Shown: positions 32,633 to 61,800 of the stretch, piece by piece
Layout of the letters: the number at the start of each line of letters is the position of its first letter
Numbering within the stretch: the first letter of the stretch is position 1
Assembly: GCA_963745035.1 (NCBI GenBank)
Contig: CAVUVW010000014.1
Span: 768,001 to 832,000 of the forward strand
Direction: 5' to 3'
Source: an uncultured delta proteobacterium
GTDB taxonomy: Bacteria > Desulfobacterota > Binatia > UBA9968
Length of the DNA stretch: 64,000 nt
Translations under genes and position numbers: made by a program
Notes under the pieces: generated by a model
Told to the model about the DNA's origin: nothing
Database searches by the model: none
What the model saw: only the letters and a program-made list of their open reading frames with translations

Positions 32633-32678
32633 ACTGCATGCTCTAGGCTATGACAACCCCGCCTGTGTCTTTCACCAA
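32633..32678 (-). mobile_element. REP-associated (Y1/HUH) transposase fragment (LVKDTG..IA*SMQ)
   Basis: Matches 38050-38095; same upstream breakpoint. Confidence 0.7.
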
Positions 32679-32701
32679 GCGATGACGTGGATCGACGACA
32701 T

Positions 32702-33436
32702 TCAACGACGCGCCGCACTCACGTTCGTGCCGTAACCAAGGTCCGCGATCCACTCACCGCGCCCCTGTGGAGTGAGATCCAAGATATGCCAAACGGGACT
32801 GTACAGATCGATACCGCGCTCTTCGATGTCGCTCGAGAAAGACGGATGAACTGAGTAGAAGTGGCGAGGGGTTCCGTCAGGATCTCGAGTGAAAACGGAA
32901 ATGGTCGAATCCTGATTCCCCTCGCGGTCTTCGCTGCCGAGATCGTATTTGAACGTGTTGGCGCCCGCACTCAGTAGCCTGAGCCTGTGCCACCCGCGCG
33001 CACGTGCATGTGCGCGCAACGCCACCGGATCGGCAGCGGCCACGACCGCAACGTCGACGTTCTGAGCCAGATGATGAGCGACACCATTCCAACCATCGAT
33101 CCAGAGCGTGCACATCGGGCACGGCGTGGTGTTCTTCTTTCCGAACATGAACTGATAGACGACCAACGAACGATCAGGCGCGCTGAACAGTTCGCTCAGG
33201 CGGACGGTGCGGATCGGCGTGTCGCCGGCATCGAGGTCCGCCGGACCCTCTTCGAACGCATAATCCTGAAGCGCCGCGCCTTGCGGAAGCCCGCGGCGAA
33301 GTTCCGCTACTCGCTCTCGCTGGCGCATCAGCTCAATTTCCGCCAGTCGAAGTTCTTCTCGCTTGGACAGATATTTGTCGGATTCGTTCGGCAAATTGGT
33401 TTGTCGAGGCGTCGCGTTGATTTTCTCCTGTGCCAT
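32702..33436 (-). CDS. DUF899 family protein
   Basis: E.VAELRR.LP.G, CPMCT.W.DG, HARARGW, LDLTPQGR. Confidence 0.9.
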   Translation of the reverse strand: MAQEKINATPRQTNLPNESDKYLSKREELRLAEIELMRQRERVAELRRGLPQGAALQDYAFEEGPADLDAGDTPIRTVRLSELFSAPDRSLVVYQFMFGKKNTTPCPMCTLWIDGWNGVAHHLAQNVDVAVVAAADPVALRAHARARGWHRLRLLSAGANTFKYDLGSEDREGNQDSTISVFTRDPDGTPRHFYSVHPSFSSDIEERGIDLYSPVWHILDLTPQGRGEWIADLGYGTNVSAARR

Positions 33437-33646
33437 GGTTCATACCTCCTTAAGTTTTTCGCCAAAAAGTTTTGGAGACATTGCTGCTGCATTCGCCGGC
33501 CAGACACCGAATGCCTCACTCAATAGCGCAACGAATGAGCGAGCGCTTTTAGGGCAGTCGTACTGAAAAAGTTTCCGACTGTTATTAAAGTATGCCAGAT
33601 TGAAAGGGGATCTGAAGTATGAACCAAAAGAATCTTGCGACAACTT

Positions 33647-33704
33647 CTCGCTTCCTGGCTTGGAAAACCTAATGCAAATACCGGCGGCGACGCGGGGAAA
33701 CTTC
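33647..33704 (-). mobile_element. REP-associated transposase fragment (KFPR.RRRYLH*VFQARKR)
   Basis: Matches 61565-61609. Confidence 0.7.
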
Positions 33705-33915
33705 TACTCACCCAAGGAAATTGGAAGTCCTCAGGAGATCGGAAATGCAAATCCGGTATTTCCTGATGCCATTAACAAAAAATTGACTTGACGCAGATTA
33801 GTCTCATGTGAGGTAGTGCATCACGGCTCATCGCTACGGCACGTGCTGTTCCACGGAGGGATCACACCGATGAAGCCATCTAGAATTTTCCGGTTATCCT
33901 CTCATTGATTAGCCG

Positions 33916-33942
33916 TGTCACAAACCGGGCGGCTATCCGGTC
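33916..33942 (+). promoter_or_regulatory. putative ECF41-type promoter TGTCACA-n16-GGTC
   Basis: One mismatch to the ECF41 consensus TGTCACA-n16-CGTC; lies upstream of cupin/haloperoxidase/NmrA genes, typical ECF41 neighbours. Confidence 0.55.
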
Positions 33943-34003: not shown

Positions 34004-34393
34004 ATGCTGAAGAAAATCATAATGGTGGTTCTGCTCTCTCTCAGTGCCGGGACGCTGATGGCTCAGGAGGTCAAGGTCACGTCTCTCATGTCGAAGGTTA
34101 TGACGGACGTTTCCGGCAAGGAAGGCCTGATGATATCAGTAGAGTATCCGCCCGGCGGGTCGGACCCTATTCATCGTCACAATGCACATGCATTTCTATA
34201 CGTGCTGGAAGGCTCCGTCGTGATGCAGGTGAAGGGCGGAAAACAAGTGACGCTCACACCGGGACAGACCTTCTATGAAGACTCCAACGATGTTCATATC
34301 GTTGGCCGGAACGCGAGCAAAACCCAGCCAGCAAAATTCCTCGTGTTCTTGGTCAAGGACAAGGGCGCTCCGGTGCTCGTGCCGGTGAAGTGA
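34004..34393 (+). CDS. secreted cupin domain protein
   Basis: VEYPPGG...HRH.AH.F.YVLEG, PGQTFYE..D.H. Confidence 0.88.
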   Translation: MLKKIIMVVLLSLSAGTLMAQEVKVTSLMSKVMTDVSGKEGLMISVEYPPGGSDPIHRHNAHAFLYVLEGSVVMQVKGGKQVTLTPGQTFYEDSNDVHIVGRNASKTQPAKFLVFLVKDKGAPVLVPVK

Positions 34394-34498
34394 CCGGGGA
34401 GCGTCTTCTCCCAGTTGCTGACATTAGCTGTCGACAGGACGCTATCAGCGCGCTCTAGGGTTCAACAGACAGATATTTCGAAGTGAAAGGAGATAACC

Positions 34499-35320
34499 AT
34501 GTCTACAATCACCACCAAAGACGGCACAGAAATCTATTACAAGGAATGGGGCGAGGGCCCCGTCGTAACGTTCTCGCACGGATGGCCCTTGAGCTCTGAT
34601 GCTTGGGACGGCCAAATGCACTTTCTCGCGCAGAACGGATATAGAGTCGTCGCGCATGACCGTCGTGGCCATGGCCGATCAAGCCAGGCCTCCTCGGGAA
34701 ACGACATGAATGGTTATGCCGATGATCTTGCGGCCATTATCGAAGCGCTTGATCTGCGGAACGCCACTCTGATCGGTCACTCAACAGGAGGCGGAGAGGT
34801 CACGCGATATATCGGTCGTCATGGATCGAAGCGTGTCGCCAAAGTGGTTCTTGTCGCTGCAGTGCCGCCGATCATGCTAAAGACTCCGGCGAATCCAGAG
34901 GGGCTCCCCATGGAAGTTTTCGATGGTTTACGCGCAGGCCTGCTCAAGGATCGTTCTCAATTCTACAAGGACTTGGCAATTCCGTTCTATGGCGCCAACC
35001 GGCCCGGCGCAAAAGTCTCCCAGGGCACCCTAGATCAATTCTGGCTTTGGAGCATGCAAGCAGGCCTGAAGAACGCGTATGAATCGATCAAGGCATTCTC
35101 CGAGACCGACTTCACCGAGGACCTCAAGAAGATCGATGTTCCCGCGTTGGTGTTGCACGGCGAGGATGACCAGATCGTTCCTGTTAAGGATTCGGCAAAA
35201 AAGTCGGCAAAGCTCATAAAGGGCGCAAAGGAAATTTATTATCCCGGAGCGCCGCACGGAATAACGGCTACCCATCAGGATCAGGTCAACTCCGACCTTC
35301 TGGAATTTCTCCGGTCTTGA
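34499..35320 (+). CDS. non-heme chloroperoxidase (alpha/beta hydrolase)
   Basis: [36 protein letters not shown]. Confidence 0.92.
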
Positions 35321-36612: not shown

Positions 36613-36649
36613 ATGGGGACGTTGCCTCCAAACAATGTCTGGAGCAGTA

Positions 36650-37658: not shown

Positions 37659-37699
37659 GGTTGCTTGTCCTTACCAAGAACTGGGTGTCACAGGGTCGC

Positions 37700-38095
37700 C
37701 CATTCGATTCTCTCGCTTGAGGTTTCGAAGTAAGAGCCTGCTCAATCCATTGACGATGGGTTTCCTGAAATTGCGCTGCATCGGCAAAGCCAAATAACGT
37801 ATTTAACTCTAGCAAGTCAATAATCCCATAGCGGCTAGGCGGCTTCTGAATCTCGCGATACCCGCTGTGTTCCCATTCGTGTGGATGCTTGACCACTCCG
37901 GCGCGCACCATGTTCCAATCGATATACACAACGCACTGATGCAGATGATCCTCGGCTTGGATAGCCGTAGCATGATACCGGACCTGCCAGAACTCGCCAT
38001 GGCGGTTCTTGCGCCGATTGTATTCTTGCGTAGTACGGCCCGGAGATTAACTGCATGCTCTCGGCTATGACATCCCGGCCTGTGTCTTTCACCAA
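37700..38095 (-). mobile_element. REP-associated (Y1/HUH) transposase, C-terminal part
   Basis: LVKDTGRDVIAESMQL...YNRRKNRHGEFWQVRYHAT...YIDWNMVRAGVVKHP.EW..SGY. Confidence 0.85.
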
Positions 38096-38257
38096 TCCGG
38101 CGGGTCTATGAACGCATGAGGTCGGGCCTGCAGCTCGTGCCGCATATCCGGATTGTCTCTCAAAAACGGCTGACAAATTCGCAGTATCTTTTTGTGTCGC
38201 GCTGTTATGATTTCAATTGCATTGGAAAAATCTCATGCGGATGATAGAGAGGCTCAT

Positions 38258-38596
38258 ATGGAAATTACCGAGCACAGACCCGCGGACGTCGTTACCCTGA
38301 GCCTCTCCGGAAAACTGGACACCAACACCGCCAAGGCGTTTCAGGATCAAATTCTCGCTCGCATCGAATCGGGTGAGCGGCGCATCGTCGTCGATCTTGA
38401 ACAGCTCGGTTATATCAGCAGCGCCGATCTGCGCGTGATCATGCTGGCGGGCCAGCGGCTGAGCAGCGTGAACGGCAAGGTCGTGCTGTGTTCGCTCAAA
38501 CATCCGATCAGAGAAGTGTTCGACATAGCCGGGTTTGTATCCATTTTTTCCATTTACGGCTCCCACGACGACGCAACCAAGGCTCTGCAAGCGTAA
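38258..38596 (+). CDS. STAS domain anti-sigma factor antagonist
   Basis: LSGKLD, IVVDLEQLGYISSA.LR, VFDIAGF. Confidence 0.9.
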   Translation: MEITEHRPADVVTLSLSGKLDTNTAKAFQDQILARIESGERRIVVDLEQLGYISSADLRVIMLAGQRLSSVNGKVVLCSLKHPIREVFDIAGFVSIFSIYGSHDDATKALQA

Positions 38597-38714
38597 ACAA
38601 TCCAGATCCCCCTGACTCGAGAAGTTCTTTCGTAGCGCCTAAGGAAGAAATCCCCCCAAGGAAGCGGAACAACGCTGATGATCGGCAGTGCTGTTGGCAG
38701 GTGGCTACCTAACG

Positions 38715-38922
38715 TTGAAGCATTCCGGCCCGACTATGCGCTGTGGCCGACGGCGAGCCGCGGCAGGATCACCGCGGCGCAGATCGCTGTTGACGTCGCG
38801 TTGGAGGCTATGCAGTGATGCTGTGCGGCCAGATCGGATTCATTTCCGACCTCGCCCGGCAGTTCCGGGCGCTCGGCGTGCCGCGCGAACGGATCATCAC
38901 CGAAGAGTTCGAATTCTGCTGA
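38715..38922 (+). pseudogene. 3' tail of an FNR-like/ferric reductase gene
   Basis: GRITAAQI...MLCG...FRALGVPRERIITEEFEF*. Confidence 0.6.
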
Positions 38923-38941
38923 CCGCTTGGACACTATCGAA

Positions 38942-40903
38942 ATGTGGACGGCAATTCGCAGGCTGCTATTCGGGTTCACACTGATCCTCCTAGCTTCGGC
39001 CATGCTGCTGATTTCCGATCTGCACCAACGCCGATCGGCCGGCAAAATCCCGCGCCTCGCCATCGTCCAGCACTCGGCTAGCGCTGTGTTAGACGAAGGC
39101 GTCCTGGGAGTACTTGACAGTCTGAAAGCAAACGGCCTGGTCGACGGCAAAAACATTAGCATAGAGCGGTTCAACGCCGATGCTGATTTCGCCGTTGCCA
39201 ATGCCATTGCCGAGCAGGTGGTGGCGGCCGGCTTCGATATGGTTGTAACGATCAGCACTCCATCTCTTCAGACGGTGGCAAAAGCCAACAGCTCTCAGAA
39301 ACTCATTCAGGTCTTTGGGATTGTGGCTGATCCCTTTCGCGTTGGTGTTGGCATCGGTCGAAAGAGTCCTTTAGATCATCCCAAACGTCTGGTCGGCGTT
39401 CCTACACCCCTGCCGGTGGCGGATTCTTTCCGGCTCGCGAGAAAGCTCTTTCCAGGGCTCCAGTCTGTCGGGGTTGTGTGGAACCCGAGCGAAGCAAATT
39501 CCGAAATCACGACGATGCAGGCGCGCGAGATCTCCCGGGAGCTAGGAATTAACCTTAGGGAGGCACACGTCGACAGCTCCGTCGCCGTAGCCGAAGCGGC
39601 AGCCGCACTGACCGCTCAAGGGGTCCAGGCGATCTGGGTGGGAGGGGACAACACCGTGAACTTGACGCTGGAGGCGGTGGTCTCGGTGGCACGCAAAGCT
39701 CGAATCCCGGTTTTTTCTGCCGTCCCAATGGAACCAAATCGGGGAACGCTCCTAGATATCGGGACCAACTTTTACGACGCCGGCAGAATGACCGGCAAGC
39801 TGGCGGCGGAAATCCTCGGCGGAGTCGATCCCGCGACGATTCCTATACCGGACAAGATCCCGCAGAAGCTTGTGGTGAACAAGCAGGCCCTCAAGGGATT
39901 GAAAGACCCCTGGCAGTTTCCGGAAGAACTGCTGGCCAAAGCAGACGTTTTCATAGGCGAGGATGGGGTTCATAGGAAATCGCAGACGGCCATACGCAAG
40001 CCGCCCGAAGGGCGCCTTTTCAAAGTTGGCCTTGCTTACTTCGCTCCCGAGCCCGGAGCGGATGCTTGCATGGAGGGGCTCTTCGGCGGACTCAAAGATC
40101 TGGGTTTTGTCGAGGGCAAAAACCTGCAGTTACGCAAGGCGCACGCCCAGGCAGAGATCGTCAACATTCATTCTATCCTGCAGAACTTCGACAACGAAGA
40201 CGTCGAGCTTATTATTGCCATGACCACGCCGGTTCTGACCGCTGCGGTCAACGCGGTTAGGAAGAAACCTGTGGTCTTTACCTACGTTTACGATCCCATC
40301 GCTGCCGGCGCAGGTAAGACACCCGCGGATCATCTGCCCAACATCACAGGAACTGGATCGTTTCCTCCGGTCGGTGACACTTTAGATGTGATTCAGCAAC
40401 TGGTGCCGCAGGCACGCGCCGTCGGCACGCTCTACAATAGCTCCGAGGCCAATTCCAGAAAAGTGATCGAGGTCGGCCGCGAGCTGTTTAAAAAGCATGG
40501 CATCAAACTCGAAGAAGTTACGGTCACCAACACGAGCGAAGTCTTCCAGGCGGCGCAGGCACTGACCACCAGAAAAATCCAGGCCATCTGGATCACCGGC
40601 GACAACACCGCCATCCAGGCCTTTGAAGGCATCGCCAAGGCAGCCGCCGATGCCCGCCTACCACTCGTCATCAACGACCCCGAATTCACCGAAAGAGGCG
40701 CTCTAGTCGCCGTGGGGATTGGCTGGCAAAAAACATGTCAAGGCGCCGCCAAGAGGGTTGCGCAGGTGTTACTCGGCGAGAAGCCGCAAAACTTACCTTT
40801 CGAAAATGTCGTGGTGAAAAAGGTTGTCTTGAATTCCGACATCGCACGCAAGCTGGGGATAACCTTTCCTGAAAAGCTGATCAACGAGGCGAGCGCGGGT
40901 TGA
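38942..40903 (+). CDS. tandem two-domain ABC substrate-binding protein (ABC_sub_bind type)
   Basis: Two repeats: TP...DP..G...VG..N.SEANS...QAIW..GDNT...A..A..P. Confidence 0.85.
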   Translation: MWTAIRRLLFGFTLILLASAMLLISDLHQRRSAGKIPRLAIVQHSASAVLDEGVLGVLDSLKANGLVDGKNISIERFNADADFAVANAIAEQVVAAGFDMVVTISTPSLQTVAKANSSQKLIQVFGIVADPFRVGVGIGRKSPLDHPKRLVGVPTPLPVADSFRLARKLFPGLQSVGVVWNPSEANSEITTMQAREISRELGINLREAHVDSSVAVAEAAAALTAQGVQAIWVGGDNTVNLTLEAVVSVARKARIPVFSAVPMEPNRGTLLDIGTNFYDAGRMTGKLAAEILGGVDPATIPIPDKIPQKLVVNKQALKGLKDPWQFPEELLAKADVFIGEDGVHRKSQTAIRKPPEGRLFKVGLAYFAPEPGADACMEGLFGGLKDLGFVEGKNLQLRKAHAQAEIVNIHSILQNFDNEDVELIIAMTTPVLTAAVNAVRKKPVVFTYVYDPIAAGAGKTPADHLPNITGTGSFPPVGDTLDVIQQLVPQARAVGTLYNSSEANSRKVIEVGRELFKKHGIKLEEVTVTNTSEVFQAAQALTTRKIQAIWITGDNTAIQAFEGIAKAAADARLPLVINDPEFTERGALVAVGIGWQKTCQGAAKRVAQVLLGEKPQNLPFENVVVKKVVLNSDIARKLGITFPEKLINEASAG

Positions 40904-41346
40904 AGGCAGCGCTCACGGAACGCGTCCGGCGCCTGAACCTTGGACTCGAGGACCGTCTGGGCAATACGATCGGCAGCCTGTCCGGCGGCCAGCGACAGGC
41001 GCTTACCTTGCTCATGGCCACCTGGGTGAGACCTAAACTGTTACTCTTGGATGGGCACACAGCAGCTTTGGATCCGAAAAGCGCGGATCAGGTGATCCGA
41101 TTGACCGAAGATATCGTGTCGCGGGATAAACTGACCACCCTGATGGTAACCCATTCGATGCAGCAAGCAGCCAGTCTGGGCGACCGTCTGGTGATGATGC
41201 ATCGAGGCCGGATTATTCATGATCTGTGTGGCGCGGAAAAGCGCCGCGCGCGGGTCGATGATTTGCTGGTGCGCTTCGAGGAAGTCAGGCGCCAGGAGCA
41301 GCTCGATGAGAGCGCCGCGGAGATGCTGCGGCGGGGATATGTCTGA
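40900..41346 (+). pseudogene. C-terminal half of an ABC ATPase
   Basis: LSGGQRQ, LLLLDG (Walker B E>G), MVTH present; Walker A and the permease gene absent. Confidence 0.8.
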
Positions 41347-41631
41347 TCAGTTCTGCGCTCTCAGTCCTAGCAGGGGAAACGGCCTCAAGTTGTGTGCACG
41401 CCGCAAAAATCTTCCTGGTGTAACCCGTTTGAGACAGAAACTATGTTGATCGGGTCAAGTCCGACCGAATCAACGGTCGCTGTCGTGTTAAGTTTCAGTT
41501 TCATCTCGAGCATTGAGACGCGAGGTACGCTCACTCCAACCGAGTTGTCCCCTTGTGGTGTCAGCGGATATTCGAAATCTTCCACGAGAAAATGTCATCC
41601 GGTATAAGTGATCGTTCCAATAGGAATCACT

Positions 41632-43341
41632 ATGGCAAAGAAGCCGGCCAGCCTGATTTATGGTGTCGATGATAAACCCCCGTTGACCGCGTCGCTGCTG
41701 TTGGGGCTCCAGCATGTCTTCGTGATGCAGTCCGGTTGGGTGATGGTCGTGATAATCGTCACCACCATCGGCGGTACTCAGGAAGAAGTCGCCAACGTGC
41801 TCCGGATGTCGATGATTGCGTCCGGAATCGCGACCATTCTGCAATCTTTACCTAACAGTCCGTTCGGTTCTGGCTATTTTTGCCCCATCAGCTGCGGACC
41901 TGCATACATCTCCGCGTCAATTTTGGCAGGCAAGGTTGGCGGCTTGAGATCAGTCTTTGCCATGACGGTGATCTCAGGCCTCTTCGAGGGGCTGCTCGCT
42001 CGGGTCTTGCCGCGATTACGGCCGCTTTTCCCTCCCGAAGTCACCGGACTGGTGGTGGCGATGGTAGGGATAGAGATTGTGGCCTTGGGTTGTCCCAGGT
42101 TTCTCGGATTTCAGGACGGCGGCGCGGGTCCGCAAGGAACCGCCACTGCTGTTGCGATAGTGACGTTGGCCGCGATGATCGGACCGACCGTATGGGGTAA
42201 AGGGAGCCTCAAGTTATATCCTGTACTGATCGGTCTTGTGGTGGGTTACTTGTTCGCTTATTTTTTTGGTGTCTTTGAAACGGAACGGTTGCAGGAGATG
42301 CTCGCCGCGCCAATGATCAGCCTGCCACGGAAGGTTCACACGGACTGGTCGTTTGATCTCTCTCTTCTTCCCGCATTCCTCATTGCCAGCCTGGCTTCGA
42401 CCTTGAAAAGTGTGGGCGACTTGACCCTGTGCCAGAAAATCAACGACGCCGACTGGAAACGGACCGACATGCAGTCGGTCAGTGGAGGGATTTTCGCCGG
42501 CGCAATCGGTACCGGACTATCGGGTTTGCTTGGCGGGATCGGCCAATCCACCTTCTCCAGCAACGTCGGTCTTTCCCTCGCCACCGGGGCCACCAGCCGC
42601 TCGATCGCCATTCCTTGCGGCATCCTGATGATCCTGCTGGCTTTTTTACCCAAGCTCGCGGCCTTTTTTGCCGTGATGCCCGACCCCGTGATGGGCGCGA
42701 TCATCATTTACGTGGCTTGCTATATGATCCTTGCCGGCGTTCAGGTGATCACGTCGCGCATGCTCGACGCTCGGCGAACTTTCGTGGTCGGCATCGCTCT
42801 GATCTTCGGCCTGAGCGTCGACATGGTTCCCGGGCTATACAGCAACGTGCCCGATTTGATTCAGCCTCTGTTTTCGTCGTCTCTCGCGATTTCCACGGTC
42901 CTGGTGGTTTTTCTGAACCTGCTTTTTCGGATCGGCATTACCAAGCGCCAGGTTCTGGAGTTGACGCCCGGTGTCGATGGTTCGCAGAAAATCTTTGAAT
43001 TCATGGAGACCCAGGGGAGCGTTTGGGGAGCGCGCCGTGAGGTAATCCAGCGCGCGACGGCGGCTCTCAATGAGTTCGTCGAGTCCGCAGCCGCCCTGGA
43101 TCTTGTGAAAGGAAAGGCCCAAGCCGAGGTCAGTTTCGACGAATTCAATCTCGATATGGATATTCGCTACGATGGCGAGCTGATGGAGTTTCCCAGCCGG
43201 CGACTGACCGAAGACGCGCTTCTCGCCGATGACAAGGCCGTCGCCAGCCTCTCAGGCTTTCTAATTCGCCAGTACGCCGACAGGATCAAAGCTGAAACGG
43301 CCAATGGCCGGTGTCGGATCCAAATGCATTTCGATCATTGA
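41632..43341 (+). CDS. NCS2 (xanthine/uracil permease) family transporter with C-terminal RsbW-like extension
   Basis: YGVDDKPP, GLQH, LFPPEVTG, TFSSNVG..ATG..SR, P.PV.G; extra ~135 aa cytoplasmic domain. Confidence 0.85.
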   Translation: MAKKPASLIYGVDDKPPLTASLLLGLQHVFVMQSGWVMVVIIVTTIGGTQEEVANVLRMSMIASGIATILQSLPNSPFGSGYFCPISCGPAYISASILAGKVGGLRSVFAMTVISGLFEGLLARVLPRLRPLFPPEVTGLVVAMVGIEIVALGCPRFLGFQDGGAGPQGTATAVAIVTLAAMIGPTVWGKGSLKLYPVLIGLVVGYLFAYFFGVFETERLQEMLAAPMISLPRKVHTDWSFDLSLLPAFLIASLASTLKSVGDLTLCQKINDADWKRTDMQSVSGGIFAGAIGTGLSGLLGGIGQSTFSSNVGLSLATGATSRSIAIPCGILMILLAFLPKLAAFFAVMPDPVMGAIIIYVACYMILAGVQVITSRMLDARRTFVVGIALIFGLSVDMVPGLYSNVPDLIQPLFSSSLAISTVLVVFLNLLFRIGITKRQVLELTPGVDGSQKIFEFMETQGSVWGARREVIQRATAALNEFVESAAALDLVKGKAQAEVSFDEFNLDMDIRYDGELMEFPSRRLTEDALLADDKAVASLSGFLIRQYADRIKAETANGRCRIQMHFDH

Positions 43342-43407
43342 AAAACTAGCCAAACATATTTGAATTGTTTGGTTGGGTTTTGCCCTCTAGAATCGGAAAA
43401 CGATGAC

Positions 43408-43520
43408 TCGCGCAAAGACGCAAAGCACGCCAAAGTCGGAGAAATTAATCTTTCTTGGCGCCTTGGCGGGAGAAAATTTCTTGAAGTCATTCTGTCAAAC
43501 ATCCCAAATGGAAGAATCTA
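43408..43520. repeat. REP-like intergenic element
   Basis: cgcgcaaagacgcaaagcacgccaa...ttggcgccttggcgggagaa, same family as 11250-11275 and 13570-13597. Confidence 0.65.
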
Positions 43521-43735
43521 CACTACACGACCCTTTGGTTTTTTTCGATGACTCGCGGCGCGTTTTTTGAGACTCATCGGATTGCGAAACGTGCGCCGTG
43601 CGCCGGAAAGAATGAATAGGGTCTGGCAGCGAAACAGCTGCACGGCTTAAATCATGACAAGAGCTCGTGACTACCCCAAACCTTGAGCAACATTAGATTT
43701 ACAAACGGGTCCGCCTCGGAAGGAGGTTTTTTCAC

Positions 43736-44191: not shown

Positions 44192-44207
44192 CAACGTGGT
44201 GGACGCC

Positions 44208-44400
44208 GTGGCGCGGAGCGGAAAAGCACCGCGCGCGGGTCGATGATCTGTTGGCCCGTTTCGAGGAAGTCCGGCGGCGGGAGCAGCTCGACGAGGCGGC
44301 GGCGGAGATGCTCCGGCAAGCCTACGTCTGATTAGTTCCCGGGCTCTTGCCTCGCGCAGAAGAATCGAGGGAAGTTTGTGCGCGCGTCGTAAACTTTTCT
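44208..44400 (+). repeat. diverged direct repeat of the ABC ATPase tail (41228-41415)
   Basis: gcggaaaagc..cgcgcgggtcgatgat...ttcgaggaagtc..gagcagctcga..gcggagatgct..gtctgat. Confidence 0.85.
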
Positions 44401-44571
44401 TTCCGAAGATTTCATCTAAGCTTAACAATCGCCACTCGGACCTTGGGATATAAGTGCGGCTCAAAAGCTCGTTTCGCCAATGGACGACATGCGCCGGCCG
44501 GACAATTGCGCCCTTCGCAGGCAGTCGTTTTGCCATCCGTGTTCCCGCATGCCGATCATCAAGGGAAGCAT

Positions 44572-55050: not shown

Positions 55051-55477
55051 GTTACAACTCCTTTTTTGATCGCGTTGCCATTTTTTCCATGTCTCACAAC
55101 TCGCCTGGTTTAGTGAAAAGCCTCCTGACAATAATGATCCCGGAAATCTCCAGCCAGGGCACCTTCAATGTTAAACGAGCAGGCCGAACGGGGCGTGCCG
55201 CACCGCGACCACCGTGGCCGAGGCGAGACGACGAAAAAATAAGATAAAAACTACAGACTGTGCGGCATGAGCTGGCATTTATCGCCAACGGAATGAGAAT
55301 GCAAGCAAACAATTATTTCCGCACCGGAAAGCTTTGCCTCGTGTCGAAAAATGGTGTCGGAATAGTGAAAAGGTGAGAGTGAAAATGGTATCGGATAGTA
55401 TGAAAGAGGAACCAACAGCGAAATCGAGCCCCAGCTCAGAGCAGAGAGGCAAAGACAGAAAGCAAAGGGCAAAAGAC

Positions 55478-56023
55478 ATGAAAGCAAAACACCGTGAAGA
55501 ACTACTCAAAACATTGCAGGCCCGTTTTGAGAAACACATGAACCGCCATCAAGGTCTTGAATGGGCTAAGGTACAAGCAAAGCTGGAAGCTAATACTGAA
55601 AAACTGTGGTCACTCAATGAAATGGAAAGTACCGGCGGCGAGCCGGATGTTGTTGGTCATGATAAAAAGACAGGCGAATACATTTTTTATGATTGTTCAG
55701 CGGAAAGTCCTAAAGGCCGCAGAAGTGTTTGTTACGACCGTAAAGCGCTGGAGTCAAGGAAAGAACATAAACCGAAAAATAGCGCAATTGATATGGCCGC
55801 TGCCATGGGCATTGAGCTTTTAACGGAAGAACAATACCGGGAGCTGCAGAAACTTGGAAATTTCGATACCAAAACATCGAGCTGGATAGTAACACCTGCT
55901 GATATCAGAAACCTCGGTGGCGCCCTCTTTGCCGATTACCGCTACGGCAATGTCTTCGTGTATCACAACGGTGCAGAATCCTACTATGCCGCCAGGGGAT
56001 TCCGTGGCTCGGTAAGGATCTAA
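55478..56023 (+). CDS. DUF4256 family protein
   Basis: RF..HMNRH, EME.TGGEPD, ESPKGRRS.CYD, FDTKTSSW, YHNGAESYYAARGFRG (start could be 55399). Confidence 0.88.
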   Translation: MKAKHREELLKTLQARFEKHMNRHQGLEWAKVQAKLEANTEKLWSLNEMESTGGEPDVVGHDKKTGEYIFYDCSAESPKGRRSVCYDRKALESRKEHKPKNSAIDMAAAMGIELLTEEQYRELQKLGNFDTKTSSWIVTPADIRNLGGALFADYRYGNVFVYHNGAESYYAARGFRGSVRI

Positions 56024-56044
56024 ATTTTGCACAGGCAACTAAAT

Positions 56045-56221
56045 TGGTGGCAGCGCTGAGTGACATGCCAAATACAACCAGCGACAAAATGACAGTTAGT
56101 TCTTTTCCTCAGAGGCAGCTTTTCGGCCGAAAACTGAACCAAGCGCTTAACGATGCCGTTTTTGCTACGCTTAGCTTGCGAAATCAAGAAGCGCCCTGGT
56201 CCGAACCCCGGTCAAGGTTGA
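56045..56221 (-). mobile_element. REP-associated transposase element end + decayed N-terminus
   Basis: Homologous to 58655-58841 and 61625-61800. Confidence 0.8.
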
Positions 56222-56434
56222 AAATCACCTGGCGCCGATTGCCCCGGCAATCACCTGATAAAACGCGCCCGCATATTCCACTCTCGGTTTCGCCCATCAT
56301 CGCCCTGTAACAACCGTCCGGTTCAATAAATCAATACGAAAGCCTGACCGGGATTTTCCCGCTAGGCAACTTCCATCGATGGGTGATAGGTTCGAGTCGT
56401 TCCAGCTCACAATCCGTGAAAGGAGGACAAGCAC

Positions 56435-57436: not shown

Positions 57437-57447
57437 AACCTTCCCGG

Positions 57448-57578
57448 TACCGCGCAGCTGGAAGAGAAGTTCAACGCCACAGCTAGAAAACTTTATCGGC
57501 GGCTCGTAGAAAAATATCCCGACTCGCCTACGCGAAAAGGCGAAGACTCGTTTGGCCGAGCTGGAGAAAGCGCGTTAG
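57448..57578 (+). repeat. decayed copy of the TPR lipoprotein gene 3' part
   Basis: taccgcgcagctggaagagaag...aactttatcggc...ggcgaagactcgtttggccgagctggagaaagcgcgttag. Confidence 0.85.
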
Positions 57579-57610
57579 ATAATCGGCCGGGGCACCCACA
57601 TGCGGCGCTA

Positions 57611-58468
57611 CTACAAGTTTTTCTGGAAAAAATTTCTTACCCTGCTCTGGTAATCGGGACCCATCTGGCCGTGGGCAAACTCCTCGTTGAACCAAAATTC
57701 AGCGCGTGGATTGTTGACCAGCGCTTGCTGCAACGTCTTGGCTTGGGAAAATGGGACCACCGCATCGGTGGACGAATGAGTGATGAGAATGGGCAGGGTA
57801 GTGTTGCGGATACTTTCTGCCGGTGACACATCTCTTACGTCGATCCCCAGAAAGAGATTAGCCCAGAATCCGATCAGATATGCCATGGGATAATTGAGCA
57901 ACGGCATTCTGAATAGCTGCAAAGCCATTTCTGCAAGACTCGCGTAACTCGATTCTGAAACAACCGCTTTGATCTCGGGAGCTTTGTCGATCGCCATCAA
58001 ACCGACCGCGCCGCCCATGGAAAAACCCCAAACGCCCACTTCTTTTATCCCTCTGCGTTTGAGAAATCGAATGGCCGCCAGGAGATCCTCGACCTCTTTA
58101 GCTCCGGCTGTTGAATAACTACCCTCGCTTTCTCCGAGGTAGCGGAAGTCGAACAAGAGCAGATTAAAATCAGCGTGCAGAAACGCCAGCGCTGGCAAGA
58201 TATTCCCCTTGTCTGCAGGGTAGCCGTGAAGCAGGATCAAGGTCTTGTCCGCCTTTTTTGCGGATGGGATGAACCAGCCGCGCAGCGTGAGTCCGTCCGC
58301 CGTTGTGAACGACACTTGCTCGTGAGGCATGTTTAACTCGCGCGGAGTGATCGAGGAAACGATCTTCGGTGGGCGAATGGAAATATAAAACAGCCAAACG
58401 CTGGCAAGGATCAAAAGTGCCGAGACGATGAGAACAATGCGCAGGATAGCGTTCACCTGTGCGCGCAT
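57611..58468 (-). CDS. alpha/beta hydrolase with N-terminal membrane anchor
   Basis: LHGY, FDFR..G.S.G, GFSMG, D.VVP, H. Confidence 0.88.
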   Translation of the reverse strand: MRAQVNAILRIVLIVSALLILASVWLFYISIRPPKIVSSITPRELNMPHEQVSFTTADGLTLRGWFIPSAKKADKTLILLHGYPADKGNILPALAFLHADFNLLLFDFRYLGESEGSYSTAGAKEVEDLLAAIRFLKRRGIKEVGVWGFSMGGAVGLMAIDKAPEIKAVVSESSYASLAEMALQLFRMPLLNYPMAYLIGFWANLFLGIDVRDVSPAESIRNTTLPILITHSSTDAVVPFSQAKTLQQALVNNPRAEFWFNEEFAHGQMGPDYQSRVRNFFQKNL

Positions 58469-58514
58469 TTTCCCTCAATCGGGAGGAAGCTGTCAACGTC
58501 GCCTCAACCGTTAT

Positions 58515-58841
58515 GCCGGTCTTAACGAGAAGATGAATGTGGTTGGATGTGACGATGTAATTAAGCACTGAAAGACGAAGCGTTTCTTCGCTTCAAGAAC
58601 CCAGCCCAGGTAAGAGCGGCGGTCCTGCCCAAACTTCAGTAGAAAATTTCTCCGATGACAGCGGTGAGTGATATGCCAAATACAACCAGCGAGAAAATGA
58701 CGGTTAGCTCTCGGCATCGTTTTCCTCAGAGGCAGCTTTTCGGCCCAAAACTGGACGTCTAAGCGCTTAAACGATGCCGTTTTATGCTACCTTAGATTGC
58801 TAAATCAAGAAGTTGCCCTGGTTCGACCCGCAGTCAAGGTT
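58515..58841 (-). mobile_element. REP-associated (Y1/HUH) transposase N-terminal part with element end
   Basis: MPRANRHF...WHITHRCH...LLKF..DR..Y..W..EAKKRF...LNY..TSNHIHLLVK; HUH motif HIH; truncated at ~58515. Confidence 0.85.
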
Positions 58842-58984
58842 GCTGTGTCCTTTCTTCAGGGCTCTTTGCGTCGACTTGCATATTATCGGCTTATCGTAAA
58901 TAAACGGATGGGCTCGGTTAAGAATTCTTAGTCTGAATCAGGCTGCCGCGAACGATTCGATTATAGCGATCAAAAGAGGACACA

Positions 58985-60328
58985 ATGATATCGATGATCG
59001 AAGGAGTTAGTCTTACCAGGGAAGAAAATGAAATCTTGACCCGGGTCGGACCCGGTACTCCCATGGGCAATTTGTTTCGTCGGTATCAGATACCGGTCTT
59101 ACTATCGGCGGAACTCGAACCGGGAGGGCCGCCCAAGCGCGTCCGACTGCTTGGAGAAGACCTGGTCGCATTCAGGAATCAATCCGGAAAAGTGGGCTTA
59201 GTGGGCGAAAGCTGTGCGCACCGCTGCGCCTCACTCTATTTTGGCCGCATTGAGGCCGAAGGAATACGCTGCGTCTATCACGGTTGGAAATACGGCTTCG
59301 ACGGTCAGTGTTTGGAAATGCCAAACGTCTTTCCGGAGCATCAGTTCAAAGAGAAAGTTCATTTGCCGGCTTATCCGTGTATTGAACGCGGCGGTTTCAT
59401 TTGGACCTATATGGGTCCGTCAAAAGAACTTCCGCCTGTTCCTGATTTTGAATTTCTCACGGTGCCTGAGGGGAATCGCTACATCGAGCAGAGAGACTAT
59501 CAAAATTGCAACTATCTCCAGGCTCTCGATGGAGGTATCGACCCCAGCCATGGAGCGTTTCTCCATGGTCCGATTCAGTCCCGTTCCATAAGTGACGACG
59601 AAGCGCTGCTGGGGCATGGGACGGGAATAGGCGCGGATCGTAACGTTGGCGGGACAATGCGCGTTGGGTTTGCCACAGGGCAACGTACGCCAGTCGTCGA
59701 GATGACAGAGACAGAATATGGAGTTGTAGTCGCAGGGAGGCGTAACAGCGGCGCGGACAAATATCTTTGGCGCATCAATCATTTTTTGATGCCGTTCTAT
59801 ACGATACCTCCGTGGATGCCCGATAAGTCTTGCCTCTGCCATATGTGGGTGCCGGTGGACGATGAGCACTGCATCAATTGGCGGCCCAGGTGGCACCCAT
59901 TCAGACCTCTGACCGAGAACGAGCGGGAAGTTTTCGCTTATGAGCACTTGCCGCCGACGCCGGAGGCGTATGGAGACATTCGACTCAGTGCCAATCGGTC
60001 CAATAATTATTTTATGGACTGGGAGATTCACCGCACCCGGAAGTTCGGCATTCCGACGCTCCACTTGGAAGACGTGGCCATCACCGAAAGTCAGGGACCT
60101 ATTTGTGATCGGACGAAGCAGAATTTGACCCACGCTGATATGGCCAGTCTGGCAGTTTACCGTCGGCTCTTAAACGCGGCCAAGGCCTTGCGAGATTCCG
60201 GCAGGATACCCGCAGAACTCCCAGATCCCACGATCTACCGGTGTATCCGTGGCGGATGTATGGACCTGGCCAAGGAAGAGAGCTGGGTGGAACAGATGAA
60301 ACGCCAGCGCATGGGAGCCGCGTCATAG
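58985..60328 (+). CDS. Rieske non-heme iron oxygenase (phthalate 4,5-dioxygenase-like)
   Basis: LTRVGPGTPMG, CAHR...CVYHGW, D..H...LH, ED.A..ESQG. Confidence 0.9.
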   Translation: MISMIEGVSLTREENEILTRVGPGTPMGNLFRRYQIPVLLSAELEPGGPPKRVRLLGEDLVAFRNQSGKVGLVGESCAHRCASLYFGRIEAEGIRCVYHGWKYGFDGQCLEMPNVFPEHQFKEKVHLPAYPCIERGGFIWTYMGPSKELPPVPDFEFLTVPEGNRYIEQRDYQNCNYLQALDGGIDPSHGAFLHGPIQSRSISDDEALLGHGTGIGADRNVGGTMRVGFATGQRTPVVEMTETEYGVVVAGRRNSGADKYLWRINHFLMPFYTIPPWMPDKSCLCHMWVPVDDEHCINWRPRWHPFRPLTENEREVFAYEHLPPTPEAYGDIRLSANRSNNYFMDWEIHRTRKFGIPTLHLEDVAITESQGPICDRTKQNLTHADMASLAVYRRLLNAAKALRDSGRIPAELPDPTIYRCIRGGCMDLAKEESWVEQMKRQRMGAAS

Positions 60329-60512
60329 GTGCATCCTCGCTTTAGTGGAGACCGCCGGGAATTTGTTTGCGGGCCTTCGTTCCCCAGAACGTGGAAAGTA
60401 AAACGCTTCTAGTTCCAACCGCGAGAGCCTATCTTCGGTTGAAGCGCAGAGCCCGTAGGATGGCTAGCAACGGATTTGTTCATGCATTGATCGGCTATGG
60501 TTTGAGGAAATT

Positions 60513-61496
60513 ATGAGAAAAACGATTTGGCTTGGAATCTTCGCGATGGGCTTTGGCCTAAGCATATCTTGCAATGCGCTAAGCGGAGAGAAGCTGCGAG
60601 TAGTTTTCCCCATCATGGGGATCGCTTTGAGTCCATCCTGGGTCGCCGTTGAAAAGGGGATGTGGCGCAAGAATGGTCTGGACGTGGAATTGATCTTATT
60701 GACCGGCGGCGGACGGGTAGTTCCGGCCCTGGTGAGCGGTAGCGCGCAGGTTCTCCTTGCCGCGGATACCGGAGTTATCATGGCGATTCATCAAGGAATG
60801 GATCTCGTCAGGCTCGGTGTGACAACAAACTCATTGCCGTCGTCGTTGTTCACCGTTCCCGACATTCAGTCGGTGCGAGACCTCAAAGGGAAAGTGCTGG
60901 GCATCTCTCGAGGAAGGGATGCCAGTTACGTTCGCTTAACGAAGTTGCTCCGCGATCATGGAGTCAATTCGAGCGACGATGTGAAGTTCCTAACTATTGG
61001 AGAGGGACAAGCGGCAAGGGTGTCCGCTTTAAAAGCGCGAATCATTCATGGAACCGTGCTTTCGCCGCCGTTCGACCTAGCGGCAAGCAAGGAAGGTCTA
61101 AAAATGCTTGCAAAGCTCGACATCCCCACGACAGGTGGAACGATCACCACGACAACGAGCTTCTTGAAAGCAAATCGGGGCATTCTCGTCAATTTTCTCA
61201 AAGGCTACATCGAAGGAGTGCATTTTTTGTTAAGGAATAAGGACGAAAGCATGAAGGTGCTTTCGAAGTACTTGAGAAATCCCGACATGACCACGATGGG
61301 CTATTTTTACGAGCAGGTTTCTCAACGCGCGGAGAGGGACCTGCGACCGAACGCAGAGTCGGTCCGTTTTGTTAACGACCTCGTCGCTATGGACGACCCT
61401 AAAGCCAAACGTCTTTCCGATAAGGACTATTGGGACCTAAGCCTCCTCGAGGAAATCCAGCAGTCGGGATTTATCGATCGGCTTTATAAAGAATAG
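60513..61496 (+). CDS. ABC substrate-binding protein (NMT1/SsuA-like)
   Basis: Signal peptide, WVA.EKG...KNGLDVE, DLKGK..G. Confidence 0.85.
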   Translation: MRKTIWLGIFAMGFGLSISCNALSGEKLRVVFPIMGIALSPSWVAVEKGMWRKNGLDVELILLTGGGRVVPALVSGSAQVLLAADTGVIMAIHQGMDLVRLGVTTNSLPSSLFTVPDIQSVRDLKGKVLGISRGRDASYVRLTKLLRDHGVNSSDDVKFLTIGEGQAARVSALKARIIHGTVLSPPFDLAASKEGLKMLAKLDIPTTGGTITTTTSFLKANRGILVNFLKGYIEGVHFLLRNKDESMKVLSKYLRNPDMTTMGYFYEQVSQRAERDLRPNAESVRFVNDLVAMDDPKAKRLSDKDYWDLSLLEEIQQSGFIDRLYKE

Positions 61497-61564
61497 TGAG
61501 CCGAGCTGTTGCCAGCGGATCACGGGCGTGATCGCCTCAGCGTATCGACGCAAGTTTCACATCC

Positions 61565-61800
61565 TGGAAAACCCAATGCAAATACCGGCGTCGATCGCGG
61601 GGAAACTTCAGTAGGAATTGCTTTTGGTGGCAGCGGTGAGTGATATGCCAAATACAACCAGCGAGAAAATGACGGTTAGCTCTCCCACATCGTTTTCCTC
61701 AGAGGCAGCTTTGGCCTAAAAACTGACCTTCTAAGCGCTTAAACGACGCCTCTTTTGATGCCCTAATCTCGCGAAATCGAGAAGTTGCTCTGGTCCGACA
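61565..61800 (-). mobile_element. REP-associated transposase element end + N-terminal fragment
   Basis: RANRHFLAGCIWHITHRCHQKQFLLKFPRDRRRYLHWVFQ; terminal motif ggtccgac at ~61792. Confidence 0.85.

Follow-up and report, generated by a model that had tools for sequence, protein, structure and literature searches.

We find that the six minus-strand transposase fragments in the window, the whole 64,000-nt stretch of DNA analysed here, are probably immobile remnants, left by no fewer than five distinct copies or derivatives of a single IS-like family, all of them lying in the same orientation within a mosaic accessory region of ~30 kb; this degree of confidence applies jointly to the whole explanation developed below. 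The six fragments listed in a preliminary description of this DNA were all recovered near their reported positions by six-frame translation and with a DNA profile built from six intact relatives, whose 942 positions serve as element-model coordinates. Across the 7.43-Mb assembly, a search with this profile found 19 fragments (E<1e-4), 6 of which are packed into 29 kb, a clustering far beyond chance. No intact copy was found among the 19 fragments, the longest match being 363 nt, although the genome is 92.6% complete and an intact copy could be missing from the assembly. The features of the region are as follows.

32633..32697, minus strand: C-part stub of the DUF899 composite (f32), model ~288-354, degraded HUH codons followed by LVKDTGGVVIA*SMQ
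32698..33649, minus strand: captured host segment, comprising the DUF899 gene (32702-33436) and 213 nt of its own upstream region
33650..33705, minus strand: N-part stub of the DUF899 composite (f33), model ~193-271, codons ~27-50
37683..37702, minus strand: right-end tip, TGGGCGACCCTGTGACACCC, compared with the right ends of other copies
37703..38095, minus strand: internal transposase part (f37), model 309-~700, with a WQ motif and the catalytic-Tyr motif VVYIDWNM
56026..56220, minus strand: left end, leader and ~27 degenerate codons (f56), start codon lost
56221..56296, minus strand: N-terminus fragment of a second-type Y1 HUH gene, ~25 codons, frameshifted (…YQV…RGNRRQVIF)
58514..58843, minus strand: left end, leader and codons 1-~70 including the HUH motif NHIH (f58)
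61554..61802, minus strand: partly degraded inverted repeat at the left end, ~115-nt leader and transposase codons 1-45 (f61)

An intact element of this family measures ~931 bp and consists of an 11-bp terminal inverted repeat (GGGTCGGACCA…TGGTCCGACCC), a leader of ~115 nt and a Y1 HUH transposase of 264-267 aa. Six intact relatives can be aligned from GGGTCGGACCA to TGGTCCGACCC, and their outside flanks are unrelated. Among 59 full-length elements in all fetched loci, the exact left end GGTCGGACC is present in 46, the exact right end GGTCCGACC in 51 and both in 44; the ends of the family are GGGTCGGACC. Intact homologs carry the motifs NH[IV]H, FWE and YIDLNM and pass PF01797 (36-42 bits, cut-off 23), and host labels of the family include Binatia, Desulfobacterota, Burkholderiales, Gammaproteobacteria, Nitrospirae and Scalindua. 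Several arrangements elsewhere have the appearance of IS-like behaviour: a truncated copy 14 nt ahead of an intact copy (L037), left-end stubs directly ahead of intact copies (L191, L155), and two copies 9.8 kb apart that are 99.5% identical across 886 nt (L213/L215). The element presumably moves as single-stranded DNA, like IS200/IS605.

Three of the fragments, f61, f58 and f56, are separate copies, because all of them cover model 8-197 at 78-83% mutual nucleotide identity (f58 and f61, 83%; f56 to either, 78-83%); each would have kept its left end and lost the remainder. f61 (61800-61554, model 8-255, E 2e-48) shares 91-93% amino-acid identity with the intact homolog P0001 and 96-98% nucleotide identity with the N-part of the G020/L071 composite, and is cut at model 255, 57 nt from the stop of a convergent NMT1-type binding-protein gene (60513-61496). 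f58 (58831-58514, model 5-327, E 7e-71), which has a single frameshift near 58576 and an outer extension of its left end, CAACCTTGACTGCGGGTCGAACC, is cut at model 327, 45 nt ahead of the start of a same-strand alpha/beta hydrolase gene (57611-58468). f56 (56210-56032, model 4-197, E 6e-21) terminates at the stop codon of a convergent DUF4256 gene (55334-56023). The f33 stub overlaps f61 and f58 in model positions. The left end and ~115-nt leader common to f56, f58 and f61 had been overlooked in the preliminary description.

The idea that the transposase gene forms a shell around cargo, in the colinear order N-part, cargo, C-part, is borne out around the DUF899 gene (PF05988, 135.8 bits), where 33 nt of the transposase gene (tnpA), just before the HUH codons, are replaced by a 952-nt host segment. 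This segment was delimited by comparison with L075 and L077, the nearest DUF899 loci that lack element parts (92-93% identity). The f33 profile match (33705-33647, model 199-258) was extended to ~271 (window 33650) by eye and from the native locus, and f32 (32700-32633, model 286-354, E 5e-10) is cut 66 nt ahead of the start of a truncated MetE-like gene. The same N- or C-junction occurs in 16 other loci at 90-95% identity to the window (L047, L058, L059, L068-L074, L076, L078, L079, L087, L231 and L233), the junction between f33 and the DUF899 upstream region being identical in 12 other loci; composite junctions are present in 11 of 80 fetched DUF899 metagenome loci and in 10 of the 12 closest. 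These loci have at least five distinct left flanks, and in three contexts (L073; L071/L074/L047; L078), which differ in their flanking sequence both to the left and to the right, the two element ends are present. Identity of the composite to the window (90-95%) exceeds the genus-wide identity of the core genes located at the right edge of the window (72-79%), and two carriers come from another genus. Shell and DUF899 cargo together form a discrete unit, which many genomes and metagenomes contain with its element ends intact.

Identity by descent of the DUF899 junctions across 16 further loci points to a single capture and not to the repeated local capture proposed earlier; the capture did not occur in the window's present arrangement. 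The composite would have arisen once, elsewhere, by the 33-nt-for-952-nt replacement, as a non-autonomous cargo transposon that retained its two ends and then dispersed over several sites and genomes, presumably with transposase supplied in trans. The window copy would be a worn piece of it that has lost both ends: the cupin-side flank of f33 is common to G105:C387, whose N-part reaches model 74, indicating that the start of f33 at model 199 is a local deletion of ~200 nt. An uninterrupted close transposase gene was not found in the composite-bearing MAGs G020, G102 and G105 (67, 84 and 96% complete), so that it is the differing flanks alone that suggest mobilisation in trans. Transfer of larger DNA followed by rearrangement could partly mimic this pattern, and no empty site was found for any insertion, a search for that of L071 yielding scattered modules only. 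Transposition of both element and composite is proposed from sequence comparison rather than from a directly observed event.

The shell model did not extend to the ~20-kb block between f58 and f37, which had been described as cargo between two halves of one gene. The end of f58 and the start of f37 overlap by ~19 model positions with different codons and belong to different lineages, and the colinear order is only formal, with a third N-fragment, f56, inside the block. Synteny of the block as a unit was not found in 30 genus genomes. Instead, f37 finishes in its own right end beside a bestrophin gene, as in the metagenome contig L078. This fragment (38095-37732, model 309-671, E 2e-83) has one frameshift at 38038 and unrelated sequence upstream, and shares 86% amino-acid identity with P0001 and 90-93% nucleotide identity with the C-parts of composites L073, L071 and L087. 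Its right-end tip, overlooked previously, is joined to it after an internal deletion of about model 700-920, and the bestrophin gene is the next gene beyond it; the tip is shared with the L078 composite together with 288 nt of right-end flank (37690-37403) at 96.5% identity. f37 would therefore represent a fourth copy, of which an internal piece and the right-end tip were kept at the original insertion site upstream of the bestrophin gene.

A different role for the relics, which we regard as unlikely, is that of a recombination anchor: dead copies in the same orientation would provide portable homology, recombination between them or repair at them would shuffle the adjacent gene-sized modules, and the copies would come to lie at the seams. 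The relics do sit at the seams of modules that are combined differently elsewhere. The end of the MetE-like module (32630) is 3 nt away from that of f32, and in G029 this module is separated from DUF899 by 7 kb; the hydrolase module begins at 58511, at a distance of 3 nt from the end of f58, and from there downwards recurs at 96.7% identity in another context in L069/L070, where it adjoins a DUF899 composite. Single-gene modules of L071 are found again, at 90-97% identity, on different contigs in many genomes of the genus, and in 32 of the 33 contig pieces with at least two matches all matches are on one strand (97 of 98 matches). However, homology must end wherever the window has been rearranged, making the coincidence with seams partly trivial, and no chimeric element was identified in which the N-part of one lineage is continuous with the C-part of another. 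The junctions are to non-element DNA, which is not the product of homologous recombination between copies, and there are, besides, many pseudogenes in the region that have no relation to the element.

The preliminary description further placed the starts of f32 and f37 at the same nucleotides (32678 and 38095). A 17-nt identity is real, but the homology of f32 continues 19 nt upstream from TTGGTG (32678) to the DUF899 stop at 32697 by native-locus comparison, and to 32700 in the profile alignment. Better-preserved copies (L076, L073b, L059) read SSNHVHLLVKDTG at this point, and a 1-nt deletion in the window masks the HUH codons of f32, whose start (model ~288) is unrelated to that of f37 (model 309). 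The apparent common start would accordingly be read as sequence conservation combined with a small deletion in f32, rather than a common cut. These same observations speak against a single event in which a copy that was already truncated was duplicated locally, an explanation we consider very improbable. The two fragments do share 46 nt at 93% identity (3 mismatches) and, on the same strand, are separated by 5.4 kb, but they differ in their starts and have unrelated flanks on both sides. Moreover, the f37 site is common to L078 and the f33-DUF899-f32 site to G105:C387, which argues for two copies of the composite lineage and not for a stub duplicated locally.

A site-specific hot spot at LVKDTG, just after the HUH motif, on which cargo would land repeatedly, is largely refuted. 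f58 does stop at HIHLLVK-TG (position 327) as reported, close to the start of f37 at 309; left-end fragments elsewhere end at 329 (L046) and 314 (L185), and an other-type Y1 fragment in L069 ends a few codons past its HUH motif. Nevertheless, the expected enrichment did not materialise: model 300-329 holds 4 of 148 internal breakpoints (1 of 76 starts and 3 of 72 ends, against ~5 expected if uniform), and two of the four are the window's own f37 start and f58 end. In addition, the f32 start is the DUF899 junction ahead of the HUH codons, and the cargo joined to f58 is not that joined to f37. The count also peaks at 258 and 286, which reflects one ancestral event sampled repeatedly, because DUF899 loci were fetched on purpose. 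Between model 246 and 400, left-end fragments have their internal ends at about twice the uniform density, and some regional bias may exist there. The breakpoints would rather be individual deletion endpoints that tend to stop near the ends of neighbouring genes, as might be expected if only harmless deletions survive. Least credible of all is a chimeric join during assembly: although the genome is a MAG with 5.8% contamination and the region contains repeats in the form of element fragments, the window's contig is 1.06 Mb, and short metagenome contigs (four runs, from four studies) span the junctions of f32 (2 runs) and f33 (2) and the 5' junction of f37 (4), mostly with <3% differences.

By its predicted features, the transposase belongs to the TnpA-REP/TIRYT class and the element to the published TIRtron/TIRYT type (TIR-associated tyrosine transposases; Di Nocera et al. 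2013, PMC3733652). As described there, with 26 TIRYT examples, TIRtrons combine a RAYT-like Y1 HUH gene with flanking terminal inverted repeats rather than REP hairpins, many of which share GGGGWSAS (7/8 in the left end here, (G)GGGTCGG), and genomic amplification of the repeat is absent or no more than moderate. That description presents gene-plus-TIR arrangements whose mobility is left open; in contrast, our family has many copies or relics per genome, nested or abutting, and a cargo derivative. It also resembles TnpA-Y1 subclasses 2.1 and 2.3 of class 2 (Quentin et al. 2018, PMC6006769) in its NH[IV]H, WE and Y-x-x-x-N motifs, in having no REP nearby, in its prevalence in delta- and betaproteobacterial lineages, and in a length (264-267 aa) between their medians (238 and 325). 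It differs in that the Tyr motif ends in NM rather than NP, and Pfam found no C-terminal HTH (Bac_DnaA_C, HTH_23/28) in P0001 and P0002. According to the same source, subclasses other than 1.1 are without typical IS features and low in copy number, unlike the IS-like copy dynamics seen here.

IS200/IS605 elements (IS608, ISDra2) share with this family the Y1 HUH chemistry, predicted in our case, a compact element and short non-coding ends. Only the ends of IS200/IS605 elements are required in cis, so that internally altered derivatives can be mobilised. To our knowledge, their known non-autonomous derivatives (PATEs) carry no gene. Unlike our family, IS200/IS605 elements have subterminal hairpins without inverted repeats and a TnpA of ~150 aa with Y-x-x-x-Q, and many also have tnpB; here, the score of the NCBIfam IS200 model is 19-24 bits (cut-off 55). 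The strong same-strand bias of our copies resembles that of IS200/IS605, in which it is expected from insertion into the lagging-strand template (PMC6006769), and a second cluster, located on the G-rich strand of contig C13, fits this orientation rule.

The REPtron, a RAYT gene flanked by REP/REPIN (Nunvar 2010; Bertels 2011, 2017), involves the same protein superfamily, but RAYTs are typically single-copy and vertically inherited, whereas this family is multi-copy, decaying and horizontally spread. Homologs bear the database name 'REP element-mobilizing transposase RayT', and NF047646 scores 65-71 bits, under its cut-off of 80. Unlike in a REPtron, no dispersed repeat was detected, the 11-mer end occurring 5 times in 7.4 Mb against ~7 expected. 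Cargo capture is known from IS-derived passenger-gene transposons and from HUH rolling-circle elements (IS91/ISCR, Helitrons). As in such capture, a host gene here lies between the two ends of an element that lacks its own transposase or has only a broken one; in contrast, the DUF899 passenger sits inside the Y1 transposase reading frame after the 33-nt replacement and not beyond a missed terminator, with no sign of read-through capture.

Finally, the second-type Y1 fragment, also overlooked previously, abuts the left end of f56 on its upstream side. It was identified by eye against this genome's intact type-2 genes rather than by an alignment statistic, and composite L073 has a similar fragment ahead of its left end.

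The six minus-strand transposase fragments of the window belong to an element of about 931 bp, a Y1 HUH transposase gene flanked by terminal inverted repeats (TIRs). A protein search with the fragment at 37 kb (f37) returned 139 longer proteins, mostly of 260-267 aa with PF01797 and several of them named RayT or putative transposase, the best homolog being P0001 (264 aa, 86% identity). When six intact copies were aligned with their flanks, similarity began at GGGTCGGACCA, about 115 nt 5' of the start codon, and ended at TGGTCCGACCC, 2-4 bases 3' of the stop codon. These two sequences are inverted repeats of each other, with GGGTCGGACC and GGTCCGACC as the left and right end words. A DNA profile of 942 positions, built from the six copies, is the basis of all subsequent mapping, and positions in it are called model positions. 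Across all fetched loci (genomes or metagenome contigs) we counted 59 full-length elements, which carry the exact 9-mer end on the left in 46 cases, on the right in 51 and on both sides in 44; with one mismatch permitted, the left end is found in 55/59 and the right end in 57/59. Rows duplicated under a second identifier (L008-L011, L013, L015-L018, L051, L057, L066, L154, L159) were dropped when the files were made, and further duplicates (L019, L020, L022, L148, L149, L164) when the 59 elements were counted. L021, L032, L063 and L067, from the unpublished genomes G005, G035 and G093, are included in the end, breakpoint, strand and full-length counts, and no claim is made on them alone.

P0001 and a second intact homolog, P0002, score 36.3 and 41.9 bits against PF01797 (Y1_Tnp; cut-off 23), which places them among Y1 HUH proteins, and the intact homologs share the motifs NH[IV]H, FWE and YIDLNM. 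NHIH is present in the fragment at 58 kb (f58) and VVYIDWNM in f37, while a Pfam search of the window fragments alone gave zero matches and NCBIfam recognized, weakly, f37 only (NF047646). P0001 itself may be inactive, because Asn replaces the catalytic Tyr (VVNIDLNM against the family's VVYIDLNM). Scores against NF047646 (REP-associated tyrosine transposase; 65.1 and 70.6 bits, cut-off 80) and NF033573 (IS200; 19.4 and 24.2 bits, cut-off 55) lie below the cut-offs for both proteins. A RAYT/REPtron has highly repeated flanking REP/REPIN sequences and an NF047646 score above cut-off, whereas in the window's own genome (G000) we saw no REP-like amplification of the element end, the 11-mer occurring 5 times and the 9-mer 65 times (expected: 6.9 and 114) in a count of the element's own end words. 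IS200/IS605 elements encode a short TnpA with Y-x-x-x-Q and carry subterminal hairpins instead of inverted repeats; the present element has YIDLNM and inverted-repeat ends. Di Nocera et al. 2013 (PMC3733652), in their account of RAYT-like genes with flanking TIRs, many of them GGGGWSAS, call such units TIRtrons. Quentin et al. 2018 (PMC6006769) define class 2 of TnpA-Y1 by Y-x-x-x-NP and report no REPs for its subclass 2.1, in their view the likely counterpart of the 'TIRYT' genes that Di Nocera et al. described. Subclass 2.1 has a named C-terminal HTH-like domain, unlike the present family: its intact homologs have a conserved, unnamed C-terminal tail of about 140 aa, and at E<=0.01 Pfam matched P0001, P0002 and the type-2 paralog to PF01797 only, without Bac_DnaA_C, HTH_23 or HTH_28. 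As a RAYT-like gene bounded by TIRs unrelated to REPs, the element fits the TIRtron description, though its left end reads GGGGTCGG in many copies, which agrees with GGGGWSAS at 7/8 positions and has G, not A, at the seventh.

Six-frame translation of the six places in the window gave pieces of one protein family.

Transposase fragments in the window, named by window kb
f61, model 8-255, minus strand: first ~45 codons
f58, model 5-327, minus strand: reads MPRANRHFLAGCIWHITHRCHRRNFLLKFGQDRRSYLGWVLEAKKRF, then LSVLNYIVTSNHIHLLVKTG past a frameshift
f56, model 4-197, minus strand: ~27 degenerate codons
f37, model 309-671, minus strand: reads LVKDTGRDVIAESMQLISG, then ~110 more residues past a frameshift
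f33, model 199-258, minus strand: ~55-nt stub on one side of the DUF899 gene
f32, model 286-354, minus strand: ~65-nt stub on the other side of the DUF899 gene

The left end of the element survives in f56, f58 and f61, and the right end as a single tip at f37 (window 37702-37683), joined to that fragment across an internal deletion. Since f61, f58 and f56 each begin at the natural left end and their mutual overlap is 78-83% identical, they represent three different copies. Elsewhere in the 7.43-Mb, 28-contig assembly, blastn of the window fragments found one weak match, on the same contig (C14). The element profile (E<1e-4) found 19 matches in all: six in the window, nine on C13, two on C18 and one each on C10 and on C14 outside the window. 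The longest spans 363 nt, so an intact copy is not assembled in this genome (completeness 92.6%).

Part of the window between 31.5 and 38.5 kb is found in 23 public runs. For a comparison with window 30-40 kb we took contigs from four of these runs, each belonging to a different study (soil, rhizosphere, winery), and read them as evidence of presence only. Contigs differing little from the window bridge the junctions of the f32 stub (2 runs), the f33 stub (2 runs) and the 5' side of f37 (4 runs); depth varies over 30-40 kb, and some stretches are not covered. In other contigs f37-like sequence runs directly into f32-like sequence; these are composite copies whose C-part is uninterrupted. Contigs of 4/4 runs also contain a joint that skips 927 nt (window 34390-35318), the whole alpha/beta hydrolase gene at 34499-35320; this joint may come from another organism, because its shorter side comprises only 34 letters.

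The preliminary description had f32 and f37 starting at one shared breakpoint, at LVKDTG. The profile separates them: the start of f32 lies near model 288 (profile alignment: 286) and that of f37 at 309, and the DNA upstream of f37 is unrelated. The apparent start of f32 at TTGGTG arises from a 1-nt deletion and substitutions in the stretch where the element resumes. Nor are breakpoints enriched at LVKDTG. Over all fetched loci, with duplicates removed and contig-edge ends excluded, model 300-329 holds 1 of 76 internal starts and 3 of 72 ends, where about 5 would be expected if breakpoints were uniform; two of these four belong to the window, the end of f58 lying at 327. Peaks at 258 (ends) and 286 (starts) reflect a single DUF899 event that is over-sampled, since DUF899 loci were fetched on purpose. 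Ends of left-end fragments are about twice as dense at model 246-400 as elsewhere, and short solo left ends stop at 130-139 in five recurrences; a regional bias or propagated deletion derivatives may account for this, but there is no site at LVKDTG. The shared breakpoint is an illusion of conservation, and the window fragments are ordinary dead IS relics in a decaying accessory region.

Capture of cargo between halves of a transposase gene was also proposed, around the DUF899 gene and around a block of about 20 kb between f58 and f37; the first case stands, with constant junctions, and the second falls. The two supposed halves of the larger case overlap by about 19 model positions with different codons. 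A single gene divided between f58 and f37 is further contradicted: the f61/L071 lineage shares about 77-83% identity with f58 against 92-93% with f37, f56 lies between the two, and f37 has its own right end. The right-end tip of f37 and the next 288 nt, the start of a bestrophin gene, match the right-end flank of the metagenome locus L078 at 96.5% identity. Because this flank is common to both, f37 marks an insertion site upstream of the bestrophin gene, which is a neighbour rather than cargo. Window 38.1-56 kb is absent as a block from all 30 genus genomes compared, and no genus genome has window 54-64 kb as a block. Synteny is likewise lacking over 54-62 kb, the conserved chromosome resuming near 62.2 kb. 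Within the larger block, a module of STAS, double binding-protein, permease, SpoIIE-phosphatase and anti-sigma kinase genes (window 38192-47694) has two paralogous copies in the genome, at C14:44340-48881 and C17:118168-122368 (65-77% identity).

The DUF899 composite, by comparison, recurs as a unit. In L073 it is complete, with left end, N-part, DUF899 and C-part to the right end in about 1.84 kb. A 3.1-kb contig from another species of the genus (G020:C344, L047) has the left end, an internally deleted N-part with f33's junction, a DUF899 gene 93% identical to that of the window, a run of N, and the C-part through the right end. Scanning 80 metagenome loci with close DUF899 relatives, we found element parts beside the gene in 11, ten of which are among the 12 closest loci. 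Genome searches at family level brought in G102 and G105, of another genus, and later G029 and G018. All composites have the end of the N-part at profile 256-258 and the start of the C-part at 283-289. Their left flanks form five unrelated groups, and right flanks differ among the three complete contexts; both ends around the passenger, together with differing flanks, occur in L073, L071/L074/L047 and L078, while the window copy is without both ends. The composite units are 90-95% identical to the window's, compared with 72-79% across the genus for the conserved genes at the window's right edge. An uninterrupted close transposase gene was found neither in G000 nor in the carriers G020, G102 and G105, and an empty site for the L071 composite was not found either, its flanking modules occurring in many genus genomes and never adjacent. 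The composite would be a non-autonomous cargo transposon moved in trans, its mobility being suggested by the differing flanks. The literature searched yielded no description of a cargo-bearing TIRtron.

The junctions were placed by setting the composite against a native locus and an intact element. L075 and L077 (92-93% identity), the nearest DUF899 loci free of element parts, match window 33649-32698 and no further. The N-part runs to ...GAAGC (window 33650, model ~271), and is followed by 952 nt of captured host DNA, made up of the DUF899 gene with 213 nt of upstream region, plus 4 nt. The replaced part of the transposase gene is 33 nt long and lies two codons 5' of the HUH motif. The element resumes at CGTCGAACCAC..., where well-preserved copies read SSNHVHLLVKDTG and the window copy shows a 1-nt deletion and substitutions (...CGTCGATCCACGTCATCGCTTGGTG...). 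Microhomology at the two junctions amounts to 1-4 nt against L075/L077. It is longer with L135/L080, where the similarity may be decayed element sequence. L078 carries a second passenger at 2461-3502, an ORF starting MQKIIPHLWFDKEAK between model 331 and 787 of the C-part, which looks like a protein of PhnB/VOC type.

One rejected alternative had f56, which ends near model 199, and f33, starting near 193, as one copy split by 22 kb; their identities to L073, 82% against about 93%, are incompatible with this. The start of f33 instead reflects a local deletion of about 200 nt, because G105 shares its outer flank and there the N-part reaches model 74.

Beyond the window, whose result is mostly deflationary, the wider family is of more interest. 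Its hosts, by record title, include Candidatus Binatia, 'delta proteobacterium' MAGs, Burkholderiales, Desulfobacterota, Gammaproteobacteria, Nitrospirae and Scalindua, and the transposase protein was matched in 55 of 61 related genomes (E<=0.001, distant paralogs counted in). Close-family fragments in related genomes are grouped on single contigs and on the same strand. With L052-L056 additionally left out, all profile matches lie on one strand in 32 of 33 contig pieces with at least two matches (97/98 matches). According to PMC6006769, elements of the IS608 type insert into the lagging-strand template, and such insertion would give a same-strand bias. For the C13 cluster, which is on the G-rich strand, the expectation of the lagging-strand-template model holds; on C14 the GC skew is too weak for a reading.

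That C13 cluster (C13:1701466-1763777, 62 kb) holds nine fragments on one strand, a left-end piece (model 4-133) followed by eight C-terminal ones, five of which keep the right end, and it adjoins an intact 296-aa Y1 gene of another type (L001). Directly outside the left ends of f56 and of the complete composite L073 lies the N-terminal part of a gene of the other Y1 type (...RGN(R/Q)RQVIF...; window 56221-56296, minus strand, and L073:1-86). L069 also has a piece of a gene of this other type (...LMSNHFH...), about 100 nt ahead of the hydrolase module. The two Y1 families occur together in these islands.

In L037, L191 and L155 an intact copy is directly preceded by a truncated copy or a left-end stub, and a pair of copies separated by 9.8 kb shows 99.5% identity over 886 nt. 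Both observations point to recent movement, with insertion into or beside resident copies. In unrelated hosts, a stretch of 5-35 nt that adjoins or includes the element end is tandemly repeated (1-3x) beside the element, at left ends in L165, L169, L186, L188, L196 and L200 and at right ends in L038, L064, L173, L176, L179 and L184. Such repeats include a 35-nt copy of the left tip immediately ahead of a full left end, and the 6-8 nt that follow the right end, found again downstream. These repeats may be target or guide sequences, or may stem from repeated insertion.

The relevant sections of PMC3733652 and PMC6006769 leave open the movement of TIR-flanked Y1 units. The present unit has defined ends that are conserved across phyla, nested or abutting copies, and a passenger derivative at several sites in at least two genera. 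A wider reading, which we put forward tentatively and hold to be somewhat short of an even chance, is that TIRtrons are not domesticated genes but phylum-spanning, active single-strand transposons with nearly invariant 10-bp ends (GGGTCGGACC), that their derivatives carry a host gene inside a broken transposase frame and are mobilised in trans, and that in these soil bacteria relics on the same strand mark, and possibly contribute to, the joints within islands assembled from gene-sized modules that species exchange. Concrete substrates, namely the two ends and the DUF899 composite of 1.84 kb, are thereby available for testing whether this HUH class is a working transposase.

The surroundings of the relics show an unusual density of broken genes unrelated to the element (31844-62068). 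The NmrA-like, bestrophin and TctA genes are frameshifted, a MetE-like gene is truncated at its C-terminus, and of a cyclase, an ABC ATPase and an ABC-2 permease there remain a C-terminal part, a fragment and a tail, respectively. Relic ends lie close to gene boundaries: a stop codon lies 57 nt from the end of f61 and right at the end of f56, and a start codon follows 45 nt after f58, 66 nt after f32 and 24 nt after the right-end tip that belongs to f37. This pattern would follow if only deletions that spared the neighbouring genes had survived. In L069/L070 the hydrolase found beside f58 adjoins a DUF899 composite (96.7% identity). G029 has the MetE-like module at a distance of 7 kb from DUF899, G105 shares the cupin side of f33, and single-gene modules of L071 recur at 90-97% nucleotide identity in many species of the genus, on different contigs. 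By eye, the L071 modules are a DedA-rhodanese fusion, a TctC-like binding protein and a PPOX-like flavoprotein. This recurrence of neighbouring modules in other combinations is what exchange from a common pool would give, and the relics may, though need not, cause the shuffling.

A window repeat of about 140-260 nt, considered as an RNA or a MITE, is instead a family of small genes for lipoprotein-like proteins of about 75 aa with one TPR-like repeat (named by eye), at window 24755-25017, 28729-28988 and 57445-57584 and at C14:5177-5423. The copy at 57.4 kb is a fragment, and copies also stand beside the DUF899 composites of L087 and G105:C387. In the metagenome proteins P0041 and P0044, a C-terminal transposase piece, cut near residue 155, runs into an isochorismatase-family protein; these are further relics that abut a host gene on the same strand.
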